A stretch of 64,000 bases of DNA from Chloroflexota bacterium (GTDB taxonomy: Bacteria; Chloroflexota; Anaerolineae; JAAYEA01). The DNA lies in the NCBI GenBank assembly GCA_019873665.1, contig JAIOAV010000004.1, forward strand, positions 6,580 to 70,579, read 5' to 3'. The notes beneath the pieces were generated by a model. It was not told the DNA's origin. It did no database searches and saw only the letters and a program-made list of their open reading frames with translations. Positions 13,435-18,681 of the stretch are shown here, one piece after another (the first letter of the stretch is position 1; each line of letters opens with the position of its first letter). A program made the translations under genes and the position numbers.

Positions 13435-13463
13435 TTGACCTGCTCTCTGCACTTGAGTATACT
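13435..13463 (+). promoter_or_regulatory. Sigma70-like promoter of the lar/hyp operon
   Basis: TTGACC-N17-TATACT. Confidence 0.65.
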
Positions 13464-13549
13464 CCATGAAGGGTCAAAATGGTCGCCAGACGAGCCCGTG
13501 CCCCGCTCTGGCGCTTTTTGTTGCAGAGATCAAAGCGAGGACAAGAGAC

Positions 13550-14398
13550 GTGCCAGATAAGATCGTCTATTTTGACTGTTTCTCCGGCGCTAGCGGCAAT
13601 ATGCTTCTGGGCGCGTTGCTGGACGCGGGACTTGCGTTCGAAGATCTGCAGGCAGACGTGGCCACGATAAGGCTGGAGGGCTTTCATCTGCACATGGAGC
13701 GCCAGGTCAAGCACGGCATCAGCGGTATCTACTTTGACGTGCACGACGAGGCGCGGGAGCATCCGCTGCGTCACCTGACGAACGTGCGCGAGATCCTGCA
13801 GCGCAGCGACCTGCCGCCCGCGGTGTGCGCGCGCGCCGACGCGGTGTTCACTCGCCTGGCAGAAGCAGAGGCGCGCGTGCACGGCGTGGGGATCGAGGAG
13901 GTGCATTTTCACGAAATCGGCGCAGTGGACACGCTGGTGGATATCGTCGGCGTGATCGCGGGCCTGGAGCGGCTGGGAATCGCGCAGGTGTATGCGTCGG
14001 CATTGCCAACTGGCCAGGGAAGCATCACGACGCAGCACGGGCGACTGCCGGTGCCCGCGCCGGCGACGCTGGCATTGCTTGCCGCAGCGGGCGCGCCGCT
14101 TGTGCCCAACCCGATCCAAGCGGAGCTAGTGACGCCGACCGGCGCCGCGTTGTTGGCGGAGCTTGCCATCTTTGCCCAGCCCGCGATGCGCATCCAGCGG
14201 GTCGGCTATGGCCTGGGAAAGAAGGACCTCCCCTGGGCCAATGCGCTCCGTGCCTGGATCGGGGAGAGCCTGGCGACGGACGAGCACGCGATCCCGCACG
14301 CGCACAGAGACGACGCGCCGGCCCATGAACACGCGTATGCTCATCATAACCACGATGACGCGGGCCATGGCGAGAGCAAACAGCATCATCATGAGTGA
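13550..14398 (+). CDS. larC: LarC N-terminal half (nickel insertase) with His-rich C-terminal tail
   Basis: YFDCFSGASGNMLLGALLD, VHFHEIGAVD, HGRLPVPAPAT, ELVTPTGAA, GYGLG. No ETNIDD C-domain. GTG start after GAGGA. Confidence 0.88.
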   Translation: MPDKIVYFDCFSGASGNMLLGALLDAGLAFEDLQADVATIRLEGFHLHMERQVKHGISGIYFDVHDEAREHPLRHLTNVREILQRSDLPPAVCARADAVFTRLAEAEARVHGVGIEEVHFHEIGAVDTLVDIVGVIAGLERLGIAQVYASALPTGQGSITTQHGRLPVPAPATLALLAAAGAPLVPNPIQAELVTPTGAALLAELAIFAQPAMRIQRVGYGLGKKDLPWANALRAWIGESLATDEHAIPHAHRDDAPAHEHAYAHHNHDDAGHGESKQHHHE

Positions 14399-14414
14399 GG
14401 CAGGGGGAATCAAC

Positions 14415-14837
14415 ATGAGGGCGGTCGGCATTGTGCACAACGAACTCAAGCGCGGCATCACTCCGCCTCGCCAAAAGTCGCCGCGCTCGGTGATCGAGAT
14501 CCTGCCGAGCTATGCCGAAGGATTGCAGGGAATCGAGCCCGGGCAGGCTCTCGTCATTGTATTTCAGTTCCATCTCTCCCAGGCGCCGGCCCCGCTGCTG
14601 CAATACCCACAGGGGGACACCTCGCGGCCACGACGCGGCGTATTTGCGCTGCGTTCCCCGCTGCGCCCTAACCCGATCGGGCTGACGACGGTGCGCGTGC
14701 TGGACGTGAAGGAGAACAAGCTGATCGTTGCCGGACTGGATGCTTTTGACGGCACACCGGTGTTGGATATCAAGCCATATGTCGCGTGGCTGGACGAGCC
14801 ACCGGCACCAGAGCAGGCCGCAGCCAGCACGACCTAG
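14415..14837 (+). CDS. TsaA/TrmO(YaeB)-like SAM-binding beta-barrel protein
   Basis: GVFALRSPLRPNPIGLT, LDAFDGTPVLDIKPY. Alternative start at 14391. Confidence 0.85.
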   Translation: MRAVGIVHNELKRGITPPRQKSPRSVIEILPSYAEGLQGIEPGQALVIVFQFHLSQAPAPLLQYPQGDTSRPRRGVFALRSPLRPNPIGLTTVRVLDVKENKLIVAGLDAFDGTPVLDIKPYVAWLDEPPAPEQAAASTT

Positions 14838-14848
14838 AAAGGACCACC

Positions 14849-15526
14849 ATGGGGCGGATTCCCATCATGAGCGATGTTACCAGCGCGAACGCCGCGCTTG
14901 CTGACGCCCTGCGGCGGGAGCTGGCGGAGCGCGGTATCCTCACCCTCAACCTGATCGCCTCGCCGGGCGCCGGCAAAACGGCCCTCATCGAATGGACGAT
15001 CAAGCGCCTGGCGGGCGAATACCGCATAGCCGTCATCGAAGGCGACCTGACAACCCGCCTGGACGCGGATCGCATCATCGCTGCGGGCGCGCCCGCCGTG
15101 CAGATCAACACGGGGGGCGGGTGCCATCTCGAGGCGCGCATGATACGCGATGTGCTCGCGCAGCTCTCCCTGGATGAGGTGGACATCCTCATCATCGAGA
15201 ACGTGGGTAACCTGGTCTGCCCAACGGGCTGGGACTTGGGCGAGGATGCAAAGGTGGTTGTCGCCAGCCTGCCGGAGGGCGATGATAAGCCGCTCAAGTA
15301 CCCCGGTGCCTTTGACACAGCGCAGGCGGCGGTCATCAACAAGATAGATCTGGAACCATACCTGCCGGCCCGCGTTGAGCGGCTACGCGCCAATATCGCC
15401 CGCATCAATCCTGAGCTGGACGTTTTCGCCGTCTCGTGCACCACCGGTGCAGGCGTTGAGGCGTGGCTCGATTGGGTGCGGCAGCGCGTGCAGCGCAAGC
15501 GGGCACAGGGCAACGAGGCAAGCTGA
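14849..15526 (+). CDS. hypB: Nickel-insertion GTPase HypB
   Basis: SPGAGKT, INTGGGCHL, ENVGNLVCP, EGDDKPLKYP, NKID. Confidence 0.95.
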   Translation: MGRIPIMSDVTSANAALADALRRELAERGILTLNLIASPGAGKTALIEWTIKRLAGEYRIAVIEGDLTTRLDADRIIAAGAPAVQINTGGGCHLEARMIRDVLAQLSLDEVDILIIENVGNLVCPTGWDLGEDAKVVVASLPEGDDKPLKYPGAFDTAQAAVINKIDLEPYLPARVERLRANIARINPELDVFAVSCTTGAGVEAWLDWVRQRVQRKRAQGNEAS

Positions 15527-15894
15527 TGCACGAGATGAGCCTGGCGCAGGCGATGCTAGCGTTGGCGCAGCAGCACGCGGCTGGCCAGCGGATCGTGGCG
15601 CTCAGAGTGCGGGTTGGGGCGCTCTCTGGGGTCGTGACGGACTCGCTGGAATTCAGCTTTGAGCTGTTGAGCCAGGGCACATCCGCTGCCGGGGCGCGCC
15701 TGGAGTACGAGTTTGTACCGGTGCAGATGACGTGCCGCGCCTGCGGCGCTGATGTGCCCACCGACAAGTGGTGCGAGCTGCCAGGAAATGAGGCGGTGCT
15801 GATGGCGCTGGAAAAGGGGTGCGCCTGTGGCTGCAAGGAGCTCAAGATCACCGGCGGGTACGACTTTCAGTTGGTCGAGATTGAGGTAGCATAA
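15526..15894 (+). CDS. hypA: Nickel metallochaperone HypA
   Basis: MHEMSLA N-terminus, VGALSGV..DSLEFSF, CRAC...CACGC Zn site; TGATG-coupled to hypB. Confidence 0.9.
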   Translation: MHEMSLAQAMLALAQQHAAGQRIVALRVRVGALSGVVTDSLEFSFELLSQGTSAAGARLEYEFVPVQMTCRACGADVPTDKWCELPGNEAVLMALEKGCACGCKELKITGGYDFQLVEIEVA

Positions 15895-15895
15895 G

Positions 15896-16738
15896 ATGCC
15901 AGAAGACGCGGTAGCTAAGACAGAGCCGCACATCACGCCAGAGACGTTGGCCAAAGTCGCGCGCGCACGGCAGATCCTGCGCGAGATGGGCAGCGTTCTG
16001 GTCTCGTATTCAGGCGGCGTGGACAGCACGCTCTTGCTGCGCCTGGCGCACGACGAGCTGGGCGACCGCGCCGTGGGGGTGTATATTGACTCGCCGATCA
16101 TGGTGGGTTGGGAGAGAGAAGAGGCGCTAATGCTCGCGCAGCAGATAGGCGCGCGGGTGCGGGTGGTGCAGGGGGTGGAGCTAGGAACCGCCGAGTTTGC
16201 GCAGAATGCGCCGGATCGCTGCTATTATTGCCATGCGGCGAACTATCCCCTGCTGGCTCAAGTGGCGGCGGAAGAGGGTGCGGCGGCCATCGTGGACGGC
16301 TCCAACCTGGACGATCTCGGCGATCACCGCCCGGGCCGGCGGGCGAACGTGGAGCGGGGCATCCGTGGCCCCCTGCTGGAGGCTGGACTAACCAAAGCCG
16401 AGATTCGCGCCGTCTCAAGGCGACTGGGGTTGCCCACCTGGGACAAGCCCTCCATGCCATGTCTTGCCTCGCGCATCCCGTATGGCACGCCGGTAACCGT
16501 CGAGACCCTGCGTCAGGTGGAGCAGGCGGAGAACGCGCTCCGCGCGCTGGGCCTGCGCGAGCTACGCGTGCGGCATCATGGTCAGGTGGCGCGGATCGAG
16601 GTGCCCCCTGCCGACTTTGCGCGGGTGCTGGCGGAGCGCGAGACGATCGTCGCGTGCCTGAGGGAGGCGGGCTACCTATATGTCACGCTGGACCTGGCCG
16701 GCTTCCGCTCCGGCAGCCTCAACGAGACATTGAGCTAA
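15896..16738 (+). CDS. larE: ATP-dependent sulfur transferase LarE
   Basis: PP-loop SYSGGVDS, RCYYC, DDLGDHRPG, PSMPCLASRIPYG, RVRHH, GFRSGSLN. Confidence 0.93.
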   Translation: MPEDAVAKTEPHITPETLAKVARARQILREMGSVLVSYSGGVDSTLLLRLAHDELGDRAVGVYIDSPIMVGWEREEALMLAQQIGARVRVVQGVELGTAEFAQNAPDRCYYCHAANYPLLAQVAAEEGAAAIVDGSNLDDLGDHRPGRRANVERGIRGPLLEAGLTKAEIRAVSRRLGLPTWDKPSMPCLASRIPYGTPVTVETLRQVEQAENALRALGLRELRVRHHGQVARIEVPPADFARVLAERETIVACLREAGYLYVTLDLAGFRSGSLNETLS

Positions 16739-16764
16739 CGACGCCGAGGAAAGGCCACAAGAGA

Positions 16765-17499
16765 ATGGACACATCTTTGGAAGGGTGGCGGGCTTTGCTG
16801 GAGCAGGTGCGCAGCGGCGACATGCCCGTGGACGAAGCGTTGGCCAAGCTGCGCGATCTGCCATACGAGGACTTGGGTTTTGCGCGCGTGGACCATCACC
16901 GGCCCATGCGGCGCGGCTTCTCCGAGGTGGTCTTCTGCCAGGGCAAGACGCCAGAACAGGCAGCGCGCATCACCCAGGCGCTGGCGGCGCGCAGCCCGCG
17001 CGTGTTGGCCACTCGTTGCGCGCCAGAGACGGCAGCGGCGATCAAGGAAGCGCTGCCGCACGCCGAGTACCACCCGCTGGGGCGCTGCGTCATCGTCGCG
17101 TCGCAGCCGATCCCGGAGCCGCCCGCCGATGCGCCACTGGTGCTCGTCGTGTCCGCCGGCACATCGGACCTGCCAGTGGCCGAGGAGGCGCTGCTCACCG
17201 CCAAGGTGATGGGCAGCCGCGTCGAGCTGCTATGCGACGTGGGCGTGGCAGGGCTGCATCGCATCTTGAGCGCGCGCGACAAGCTGCAAGAGGCGCGGGT
17301 GTTGGTGGTAGTGGCCGGCATAAGCTGTCCAGTGATCGCCGTGCCCACGAGCATCGGCTACGGCGCGAGTTTCGGCGGCATCGCCGCGTTGCTTGGCATG
17401 CTGAACTCGTGCGTGCCGGGGGTGGTCGTCGTCAATATAGACAACGGTTTTGGCGCAGGCTATGCCGCGCATCTGATCGCGGCGGGAGAGAAACGGTGA
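16765..17499 (+). CDS. larB: NPN biosynthesis carboxylase/hydrolase LarB, with an internal in-frame deletion
   Basis: FARVDHHR..RRGFSEVVFCQGKT, SAGTSDLPVAEEA, DVGVAGLHR, VPTSIGYGASFGG, MLNSC, VNIDNGFGA. The usual MEGALPSVV segment is missing. Confidence 0.88.
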   Translation: MDTSLEGWRALLEQVRSGDMPVDEALAKLRDLPYEDLGFARVDHHRPMRRGFSEVVFCQGKTPEQAARITQALAARSPRVLATRCAPETAAAIKEALPHAEYHPLGRCVIVASQPIPEPPADAPLVLVVSAGTSDLPVAEEALLTAKVMGSRVELLCDVGVAGLHRILSARDKLQEARVLVVVAGISCPVIAVPTSIGYGASFGGIAALLGMLNSCVPGVVVVNIDNGFGAGYAAHLIAAGEKR

Positions 17500-18647
17500 A
17501 AGTCGCCTATGGTGACGCGCGACATGGCGCCAGCGCGGTCAGCATCTTGGCAGCGCTGCTGGATGTGGGCCTGTCTGCGGACATCGTGCAACAGGAGCTG
17601 GACGCGATCGCGCCCGGCGCGCGCCTTGTCGCCGCGCCGGTATCCGTTGCCGGGATACGCGCCACCAGCGTCTGCTGCGATGCCCCCCCATCGCTGGCAT
17701 GGCCCACGTGGCGCGAGCTCTTCGCCTGGCTGCAGGGCCAGGCGCTGTCGGAGCGCGCGGCGTCTGATATCTGGCACGTCTTGCGCTGCTGGCGCGAGGC
17801 GGAGGCGCATGTGCAGGACGTGGCGACGGACGAGGCACATGTGCTGGCCGTGGCGCCGGGCGAGCTCCTGGCGCTGTTGGGCGCGATCACGGGCGCACAC
17901 CACCTTGGTGCGGTACGCTGGGAGACATCGCCGCTGCCGGTGGGCATCGCGCAGACGCCAGCGGCGGCAGTGGTTGCCACGTTGCTGACCGGTCAACCGG
18001 TGCACGGCGCAGATGCGCCGCAGCCGCTCACCCCCGCCGCTGCTGCCTTGCTGACCACTCTCGCTGCCGCATCCGGCCCTCTACCTGCTATGACCCTGCA
18101 CAAGGTGGGATACGGCGTGGACCAGAACGCCGAGGCGTCGCTGTTCCGCCTCTGGTTTGGGGAAAGCCCAGGCGCAGGCCTGGAGTGCCGCACCCTGCTG
18201 ATCGTCGAGACGAACATTGACGACATGGACCCCGAGTTCTACGATTATGTCATGTCGCGCCTGCTCACGGCGGGCGCGTTGGATGTTGCCCTGCTGCCGA
18301 TGCAGATGAAGAAGAACCGCCCTGCCACGTTGCTGCGCGTGCTTTGCGCGCCGGACAAACTCGACTCGGTGCGCGATATCGTATTGCGCGAGACGACCAC
18401 GCTGGGCGTGCGAGTGCATGAGGTGCAGCGTTTTGCCCTGCCGCGGCGCAGCGTGTCGGTGCAGACGCCCTGGGGGAGCGTGCGCGTCAAGGTCGCCGGG
18501 CTGACGGATGGCCTGAGCCGCCCGATACCCGAATACGACGACTGCCGCCGCCTCGCTGAAGCCCATGGTGTCCCGCTCTGGCAGGTGTACACCACAGCGC
18601 AAGCGCTGGCCGCCAACGCAGAACACAAAGACGACCGAGCCGGATAG
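17496..18647 (+). CDS. larC: Second LarC paralog: degenerate N-domain plus intact C-terminal (LarC2-like) domain
   Basis: GTGA-coupled to larB. Eroded N-domain (GASAVSILAALLD, LTPAAAALL, GYG); C-domain with ETNIDDM, MKKNRP, ETTTLGVR, PEYDDC. Confidence 0.85.
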   Translation: MKVAYGDARHGASAVSILAALLDVGLSADIVQQELDAIAPGARLVAAPVSVAGIRATSVCCDAPPSLAWPTWRELFAWLQGQALSERAASDIWHVLRCWREAEAHVQDVATDEAHVLAVAPGELLALLGAITGAHHLGAVRWETSPLPVGIAQTPAAAVVATLLTGQPVHGADAPQPLTPAAAALLTTLAAASGPLPAMTLHKVGYGVDQNAEASLFRLWFGESPGAGLECRTLLIVETNIDDMDPEFYDYVMSRLLTAGALDVALLPMQMKKNRPATLLRVLCAPDKLDSVRDIVLRETTTLGVRVHEVQRFALPRRSVSVQTPWGSVRVKVAGLTDGLSRPIPEYDDCRRLAEAHGVPLWQVYTTAQALAANAEHKDDRAG

Positions 18648-18681
18648 CCCAGCTCGGTCGTCTGCTTGCGAACATCAGCCT

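Follow-up and report, generated by a model that had tools for sequence, protein, structure and literature searches.

The 64,000-nucleotide stretch analysed here (hereafter the window; G000:C4:6580-70579, where genome codes G, contig codes C and locus codes L are labels of this analysis) raises the question of which nickel enzymes HypB and HypA serve when their genes lie inside a lar operon, which encodes synthesis of a cofactor known as nickel-pincer nucleotide (NPN). HypA and HypB act in [NiFe]-hydrogenase maturation, as in Escherichia coli and Thermococcus kodakarensis, and in Helicobacter pylori they also serve urease. The most likely reading of the locus, which we hold tentatively, is that HypB and HypA form a shared nickel distributor, driven by guanosine triphosphate (GTP), that supplies hydrogenases and, through co-expression, loads the nickel-insertion protein LarC1; we favor it because the two are the sole HypA and HypB of a genome with [NiFe]-hydrogenases. 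What is new here is that the lar operon has nickel chaperones embedded in it and that its LarC is completely split; the hypothesis it gives rise to is testable and unproven.

Operon calls combined a listing of open reading frames (ORFs), Pfam and NCBIfam profiles and inspection of start codons. Seven genes follow one another on the plus strand: larC1 (13550..14398; Pfam Ni_insertion 1-264 of 375, NCBIfam LarC1 209 bits), a trmO/tsaA-like gene of the UPF0066 family (14415..14837; a single domain of 140 aa, TIGR00104 120 bits with the cut-off at 93), hypB (14849..15526; a G3E GTPase of 225 aa, TIGR00073 262 bits, cut-off 121), hypA (15526..15894; 122 aa, PF01155 88 bits, cut-off 28.9), larE (15896..16738; a PP-loop sulfur insertase of the [4Fe-4S], or CXXC-C, type, TIGR00268 317.5 bits), larB (16765..17499; nicotinic acid adenine dinucleotide (NaAD) carboxylase/hydrolase, NF033503 239 bits) and larC2' (17496..18647; 383 aa, a LarC2 domain plus a degenerate LarC1-like domain, NCBIfam LarC2 157.5 bits). 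The spacings between them are +16, +11, -1, +1, +26 and -4 nt, which bears out the original prediction of a seven-gene lar/hyp cluster with gaps under 30 bp, each gene being at its predicted place. Judged by this layout, the cluster from larC1 to larC2' is a real operon. All seven proteins are single-copy in the source genome, barring weak paralogue matches (tblastn, E <= 1e-3).

The source genome, from the class Anaerolineae of the Chloroflexota, was assembled from a metagenome and measures 4.16 Mb over 185 contigs (completeness 91.5%, contamination 6.15%). HypA and HypB each have exactly one match in it, in both cases inside the lar operon. Of the sampled words of the region, 96% are found in a sequencing run that bears the label of a hot springs metagenome. 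Elsewhere the same genome encodes, on contig C121, a [NiFe]-hydrogenase together with a small subunit and a maturation protease, and in addition several more large-subunit-like genes, and a hypF-hypC-hypD-hypE cluster on C107 with no hypAB beside hypF. Because an unrelated gene, and not the contig end, precedes hypF, the C107 cluster is truly devoid of hypAB at that place. G001, a relative with the same operon, is alike, with one HypB, a hypD and two large-subunit-like genes. The suggestion that HypAB may have been repurposed for LarC therefore fails in the source genome, since these are the only hypA and hypB of a hydrogenase-encoding genome. A loader dedicated to the two-part LarC alone and unused for hydrogenase, as originally proposed, would suit the tight embedding of hypBA between larC1 and larE, a HypB clade that never adjoins hydrogenase genes and a HypA zinc domain unlike that of hydrogenase-linked HypA (the latter two are described below); we nevertheless regard it as very improbable, as both G000 and G001 have hydrogenase and hypFCDE genes with no other hypA or hypB, and the gap beside hypF on C107 is real.

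Within the window there is no match to LarA, NiFe large subunit, HypD or HypF, all genome-wide matches lying outside its coordinates, and when 52 window ORFs, chosen greedily, were scanned with Pfam, no LarA, hydrogenase, hypCDEF, urease or aldo-keto reductase came up, which bears out the earlier observation that the 64 kb hold no larA, hydrogenase, hypCDEF or urease gene. Urease alpha was not found anywhere in the 91.5%-complete genome. An NPN-dependent client had been expected elsewhere, and the genome search indeed recovered three LarA homologues outside the window, on C43, on C46 and at C4:87434-88045. The last of these (locus L019) lies ~17 kb past the window end on the same contig, beside an FAD-linked oxidase resembling D-lactate dehydrogenase. 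Further possible nickel clients of this genome are two Prismane-family genes (carbon monoxide dehydrogenase (CODH) or Hcp-like; G000:C7:66993-68618 and G000:C6:87996-89669) and a cysteine-rich (Cys-rich) Fe-S protein encoded on a different contig from the operon (C20:42074-43123, minus strand).

As read from its translation, HypB carries the P-loop SPGAGKT, the NKID motif and a GCH...VCP metal site in the G domain; it has no N-terminal CxxCGC and no His stretch. HypA begins with MHE and has a four-Cys zinc site composed of CxxC and CxC, the MHE and the four Cys being invariant in the HypA alignment. Its TIGR00100 score of 81.2 bits falls under the equivalog cut-off of 88.1. A 13-residue insertion in the zinc domain and the CxC second pair are common to the non-hydrogenase clade, whereas hydrogenase-linked HypA has CPxC at that position.

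The HypB tree comprises 96 rows, 7 of them duplicates, and was built by a quick method from a sample picked by similarity to the window protein; its groups were set by neighboring genes within flanks of 8 kb (GTDB loci) or 1.5 kb (class loci). The window HypB falls in a clade of 45 rows (Shimodaira-Hasegawa-like approximate likelihood ratio test (SH-aLRT) 97); every one of the 5 lar-linked rows is in it, as is every one of the 29 beside a Cys-rich Fe-S protein, and 11 others complete it. All 43 hydrogenase- or hypCDEF-linked rows lie outside this clade, and none of its 45 rows has a hydrogenase or hypCDEF neighbor. Counted by loci, hydrogenase or hyp neighbors accompany 40 of 50 more distant loci but none of 30 clade loci. 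The HypB phylogeny, suggested at the outset as a check, thus places the window protein in a distinct clade that never stands beside hydrogenase genes. The pair resembles hydrogenase HypA/HypB in profile membership, in the MHE of HypA, in the Cys-His...Cys site of HypB and in being the sole pair of a hydrogenase genome; it differs from them in lying away from hypCDEF and hydrogenase genes, in having hypB before hypA, in the separate HypB clade and, on the side of HypA, in the insertion, the CxC pair and the sub-equivalog score.

A Cys-rich protein of 270-400 aa is encoded directly beside hypBA in 24 of 30 clade loci (L052-L069, L071, L072, L074, L077, L079 and L082). Besides a CNCCxCCC motif it has an N-terminal part without Pfam match and, at the C-terminal end, a 2x[4Fe-4S] domain. 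We regard it as a candidate nickel-iron-sulfur protein. Other clade members reside in nickel-uptake clusters with a Fur-family regulator, NikM/CbiM plus PDGLE, CbiQ and a CooC-like ATPase, and a further setting is that of a NikA-like binding protein with ATP-binding cassette (ABC) components. In other Anaerolineae, at L076, L078, L024 and L277, the Fur-family regulator, hypB, the CooC-like ATPase, NikM/CbiM plus PDGLE and CbiQ recur together, and these clusters look like a nickel uptake and trafficking island. The data fit a nickel distributor that is untied to hydrogenase and is physically linked to NPN synthesis in a few Anaerolineae lineages. The broader claim that the HypB(/HypA) clade is a client-flexible, GTP-driven nickel distributor, serving hydrogenases, Cys-rich Fe-S enzymes and LarC1 of the NPN cyclometallase alike, is possible and in our judgement rather doubtful.

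Fusions of an aldo-keto reductase with a 4Fe-4S dicluster domain were seen a few kb from clade hypBA at L053:2309-3469, L054:5588-6817, L059:3064-4197 and L061:5225-6418, and may be of interest in view of the NPN-dependent aldo-keto reductases reported in 2026. On a contig labelled Bathyarchaeia (L060), hypB-hypA encode a HypB 65% identical to that of the window, and 4 kb upstream lies a LarA homologue. This may reflect gene transfer or an error in binning.

The conservation of the hyp-lar linkage was assessed in a class sample of 201 Anaerolineae genomes, 109 of which have LarE. The HypB clade to which the window protein belongs (members at >= 59% identity to it) is represented in 14 of the 201; 8 of these also have LarE, and the two are adjacent in 4 of the 8. 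Four genomes from three families have HypB no more than 2 kb away from larE, namely G000 and G001 (f1), G157 (f42) and G081 (f38), and three further genomes of the class have HypB and LarE on one contig at least 370 kb apart. The tables of HypB and LarE places were cross-checked by eye; because the places of 169 weaker cobW-family matches are not listed in them, a few hypB-larE neighbors may be missed. The G081 locus contains NikM, a CooC-like ATPase, hypB, hypA, a SIS protein and a truncated larE. Among the 80 HypB loci nearest to the window's, drawn from 185,579 species genomes, a further linked locus is L065, with the order hypB-hypA, Cys-rich protein, YhfC, larE-larB-larC and 2.8 kb between hypB/hypA and larE. 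The proposed neighborhood search for hyp genes beside lar genes thus yielded G001, G157, G081 and L065, and the lar label requires three changes on the HypB tree. A lack of conservation, which the original prediction had named as telling against it, applies to the exact gene order, found in one family only, but not to the proximity of the two gene sets, since clade HypB lies within 2 kb of larE in three families.

Among 40 relatives, only G001 shares the exact seven-gene arrangement; the contig of G002, a third member of the family, breaks off inside larE. In G001 (L051 3523-5352), a 2.1-kb stretch with a 609-aa open frame and no Pfam match parts larE from larB. This insert, the confinement of the exact order to family f1 and the presence of a TrmO-like gene beside lar/hyp genes in only 2 of the best 30 loci would all accord with a chance mosaic, in which a recent rearrangement brought trmO-like-hypB-hypA into the lar cluster of one family with no functional meaning. 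We consider such a mosaic unlikely, given that the arrangement is kept, with tight spacing, across two genera at 64-76% protein identity and that hypB and larE have become neighbors independently in two more families and at L065.

The most telling case of linkage is G157. On one strand (L274, C261) it carries fused ABC ATPases, a NikA-like protein, hypB, larE, larB and larC1/larC2, with 340 nt devoid of HypA between hypB and larE, and a separate contig carries a classical hypA-hypB-hypF. The Cys-rich protein had no match at E <= 1e-10 in this 97%-complete genome, searched with one query. At L274 1824-2874 (minus strand), larC1 and larC2 overlap in two reading frames, like the frameshift arrangement of Lactiplantibacillus plantarum.

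G157 bears on the possibility that the linkage reflects co-regulation only, with HypBA serving hydrogenases, and perhaps the Cys-rich Fe-S protein or CODH-like enzymes, all nickel-consuming functions being induced at the same time, and LarC drawing on a free nickel pool by itself. We take this to be a real possibility, somewhat less probable than a shared distributor. It would account for the sole hypAB residing in hydrogenase-encoding genomes, G001 included, and for the absence of hyp genes from most lar clusters and of HypB from some LarE-positive genomes, and the two Prismane-family genes and the Cys-rich Fe-S protein offer other candidate clients in the source genome. It sits poorly with G157, which retains a clade HypB between a nickel importer and larEBC despite its own hypA-hypB-hypF and in which the query employed revealed no Cys-rich Fe-S client, and with a linkage for which the HypB tree implies two or three origins at the least.

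Several observations weigh against nickel delivery from HypB and HypA to LarC1. The linked genomes are few, four in all, and two of them are close kin; lar genes occur within 8 kb in 2 of the 80 nearest HypB loci, one being L051, the G001 locus embedded in lar genes, and the other L065. In 80 metagenome loci of the nearest LarC1 relatives, HypA, HypB and TrmO-like genes are found in none, and at all 80 the LarC1 and LarC2' matches fall at one place, as in an ordinary unsplit LarC. HypB above the cut-off is missing from 14 of the 109 LarE-positive Anaerolineae genomes, and 101 of the 109 are without the window's HypB clade. A second hypAB could be unassembled in the source genome because of its incompleteness and contamination, the linkage could reflect a common nickel regulon and not a physical hand-over, and the view taken in PMC13510736 (cited here and below from its available text) is that LarC uses histidines of its own to bind nickel. 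As most lar clusters are without hyp genes, as HypB is absent from some LarE-positive genomes and as the clade is absent from most of them, HypB is not generally needed for the NPN pathway, and HypBA are at most an optional helper.

The LarC proteins of the operon are informative about the receiving side. The larC1 product, 282 aa long, consists of the N-terminal (nickel-insertion) domain of LarC standing on its own and ends in a His-rich tail, which is also present, and longer, in G001. Over residues 4-240 it aligns to residues 2-237 of Moorella thermoacetica LarC (PDB 12bi) with an E value of 1e-60. A 2026 cryo-EM study of the M. thermoacetica protein identified essential residues in a His patch (H72, H108, H116, H118 and H160) and in an acidic pocket (D15, R71, E104, E119, D124, D128 and E187) (PMC13510736). 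In this numbering, the window LarC1 retains R71, H72, E104, H108, H116, H118, E119, D124, D128, H160 and E187; D15 is replaced by N, as it is in 6 of 43 homologues.

The last gene of the operon had been called a LarC C-terminal part, and this holds insofar as it includes an apparently intact LarC2 (cytidine triphosphate-binding) domain by profile (157.5 bits against a cut-off of 50; alignment to 6bwo, E 9e-31), but the 383-aa product also bears a degenerate N domain. A LarC(C) alone was accordingly rejected as the identity of this gene in favor of a full-length LarC paralogue, LarC2 with a degenerate N domain. That N domain scores 49.9 bits with the LarC1 model, under the cut-off of 90. It has lost D15, H53, H70, R71, H72, H108, H118, E119, D124, D128, H160 and E187, and of 15 residues checked E104 and H116 alone remain. 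Between the window and G001, identity is 35% (75/213) over the N domain and 73% (106/145) over the C domain of larC2', and in G002 only the LarC2 part is left. The N domain is, as far as its residues tell, a decaying and catalytically dead remnant. The notion of a two-part LarC is therefore functionally right, because the N domain of larC2' is dead, its LarC2 part is intact and LarC1 keeps the essential residues.

Taken together, a pathway can be proposed in which LarB would carboxylate and hydrolyse NaAD, the [4Fe-4S]-type LarE would insert two sulfurs, and a fully split LarC (LarC1 with its His patch and His-rich tail, LarC2 on a dead LarC1 remnant) would insert nickel. HypB and HypA would supply nickel to hydrogenases and, being co-expressed, could load LarC1; it is this last hand-over from HypB/HypA to LarC1 that we infer. 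A nickel supply shared between hydrogenase and NPN synthesis is plausible and unproven; besides the operon structure, the sole-copy status of hypA and hypB, the placement of the HypB clade and the recurrent linkage, it is supported by the retention of the essential His patch and acidic pocket in LarC1 and by a precedent for HypAB serving a non-hydrogenase enzyme (PMC10134865, here and below from its available text).

The precedent is the isr operon of Acetobacterium wieringae, which encodes the IsrA oxidoreductase, two HypA, HypB and a 350-aa ferredoxin-like protein, its HypA and HypB accompanying an enzyme other than a hydrogenase, while the genome lacks [NiFe]-hydrogenase (PMC10134865). For Acetobacterium, the same source reasons that Lar enzymes are unlikely clients of HypAB (PMC10134865). 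Clade hypBA likewise stand beside a candidate non-hydrogenase client, and the Cys-rich protein fits the isr ferredoxin-like protein in a comparison by description only. Unlike the isr operon, the window has lar genes as the neighbors of hypBA, and the Cys-rich protein of the genome is encoded on C20. The window LarC1 shares the essential His patch and acidic pocket with the full-length M. thermoacetica LarC, but the flexible LarC1-LarC2 linker of the latter, essential according to PMC13510736, is absent, with a His-rich tail in its place.

LarE has the PP-loop SGGVDS and, read from its translation, a CXXC-C triad made up of CYYC and PC(LASR), which is how the [4Fe-4S]-dependent LarE from Thermotoga maritima is built as well (PMC9283937, available text); its earlier assignment to the Fe-S type is thus supported. 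In the window, larB has an in-frame gap of 36 nt at 17321 that removes 12 conserved residues around the AGMEGAL motif, and these residues are present in L. plantarum LarB (PDB 7mj0), L051 and L065. We considered a pseudogene and rejected it, as the gap is in frame and a contig from run X1, in which the region is best represented, has the full motif. The X1 contig (depth 10.6) is identical to window positions 17321-18224 and has 35 extra letters at 17321 that restore the LarB motif. Because it supplies the missing letters, the gap probably stems from the assembly or from strain variation, and larB is probably not a dead gene.

TrmO_N is the sole Pfam match of the TrmO-like protein, and its best solved relatives are single-domain UPF0066 proteins, foremost 2nv4 (AF_0241). 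The hallmark of the TrmO/TsaA tRNA m6t6A methyltransferase is an N-terminal beta-barrel domain that binds S-adenosylmethionine together with a C-terminal domain. TrmO-like matches occur in 114 of the 201 class genomes, and among the best 30 loci only those of G000 and G001 have lar/hyp neighbors. Its link to the lar/hyp cluster appears confined to one family (f1), a literature search for TrmO, YaeB or UPF0066 with nickel returned nothing relevant, and any role in the pathway would be conjectural.

In L. plantarum, as in the window, proteins of the LarB, LarE and LarC families build NPN. In both, genes for nickel supply adjoin the pathway, those of the L. plantarum operon being nickel transporter genes. 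The window operon differs from it in having no larA, in embedding HypB, HypA and TrmO-like genes, and in a LarE of the [4Fe-4S] CXXC-C type and not the sacrificial single-Cys type. L. plantarum LarC, too, has one reading frame for LarC1 and another for LarC2 (PMC13510736), but in the window LarC1 and LarC2 lie 3 kb apart, there is no frameshift fusion and LarC2 drags along a dead N domain.

Our literature search returned no account of HypAB within lar clusters or next to them, and among the papers listed PMC10134865 alone bears on both systems. A 2026 Nature Chemistry study that mined lar neighborhoods and found NPN-dependent aldo-keto reductases (PMC13524815, available text) has no mention of TrmO/TsaA in its main text and no occurrence of HypA/HypB; its supplementary Pfam co-occurrence tables, like those of PMC10134865, may list HypA/HypB. 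The source of nickel for LarC in the cell goes unaddressed in the available texts of PMC13510736 and PMC11796402, where 'chaperone' has 0 occurrences.

If HypB and HypA do load LarC1, NPN synthesis has a dedicated metallochaperone step, so far undescribed, the role of HypAB extends past hydrogenase, urease and the putative isoprene reductase, and NPN yields in heterologous hosts could rise. If the coupling is only regulatory, the operon is an ordinary lineage-specific gene arrangement. The window operon and the G157 lineage offer concrete constructs for asking whether a G3E GTPase chaperone loads the pathway of a carbon-nickel cofactor, and the fully split LarC with its decaying N remnant amounts to nature's own experiment on the need for a linker that is reported for M. 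thermoacetica LarC.

The operon is flanked by a divergent ATP synthase operon and by convergent SPFH and mnmA genes. Upstream of the larC1 start, a GTG at 13550 that is kept in G001 (an upstream ATG lies at 13466), is a promoter-like site on the plus strand, TTGACC, a 17-nt spacer and TATACT (13435..13463; a consensus match only, 10/12). A terminator-like 16-bp hairpin on the minus strand (18629..18663; likewise a consensus match only) overlaps the end of larC2' before the convergent SPFH gene. No nickel/cobalt riboswitch was detected with Rfam between 12500 and 19500 at E up to 1, two sub-threshold matches aside, and the 88-nt larC1 leader folds no better than shuffled sequences (z = 0.84). 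Within the leader (window 13468-13549; about 150-190 in L051), the window and G001 have in common the block CTGGCGCTTTTT, which resembles a small terminator.

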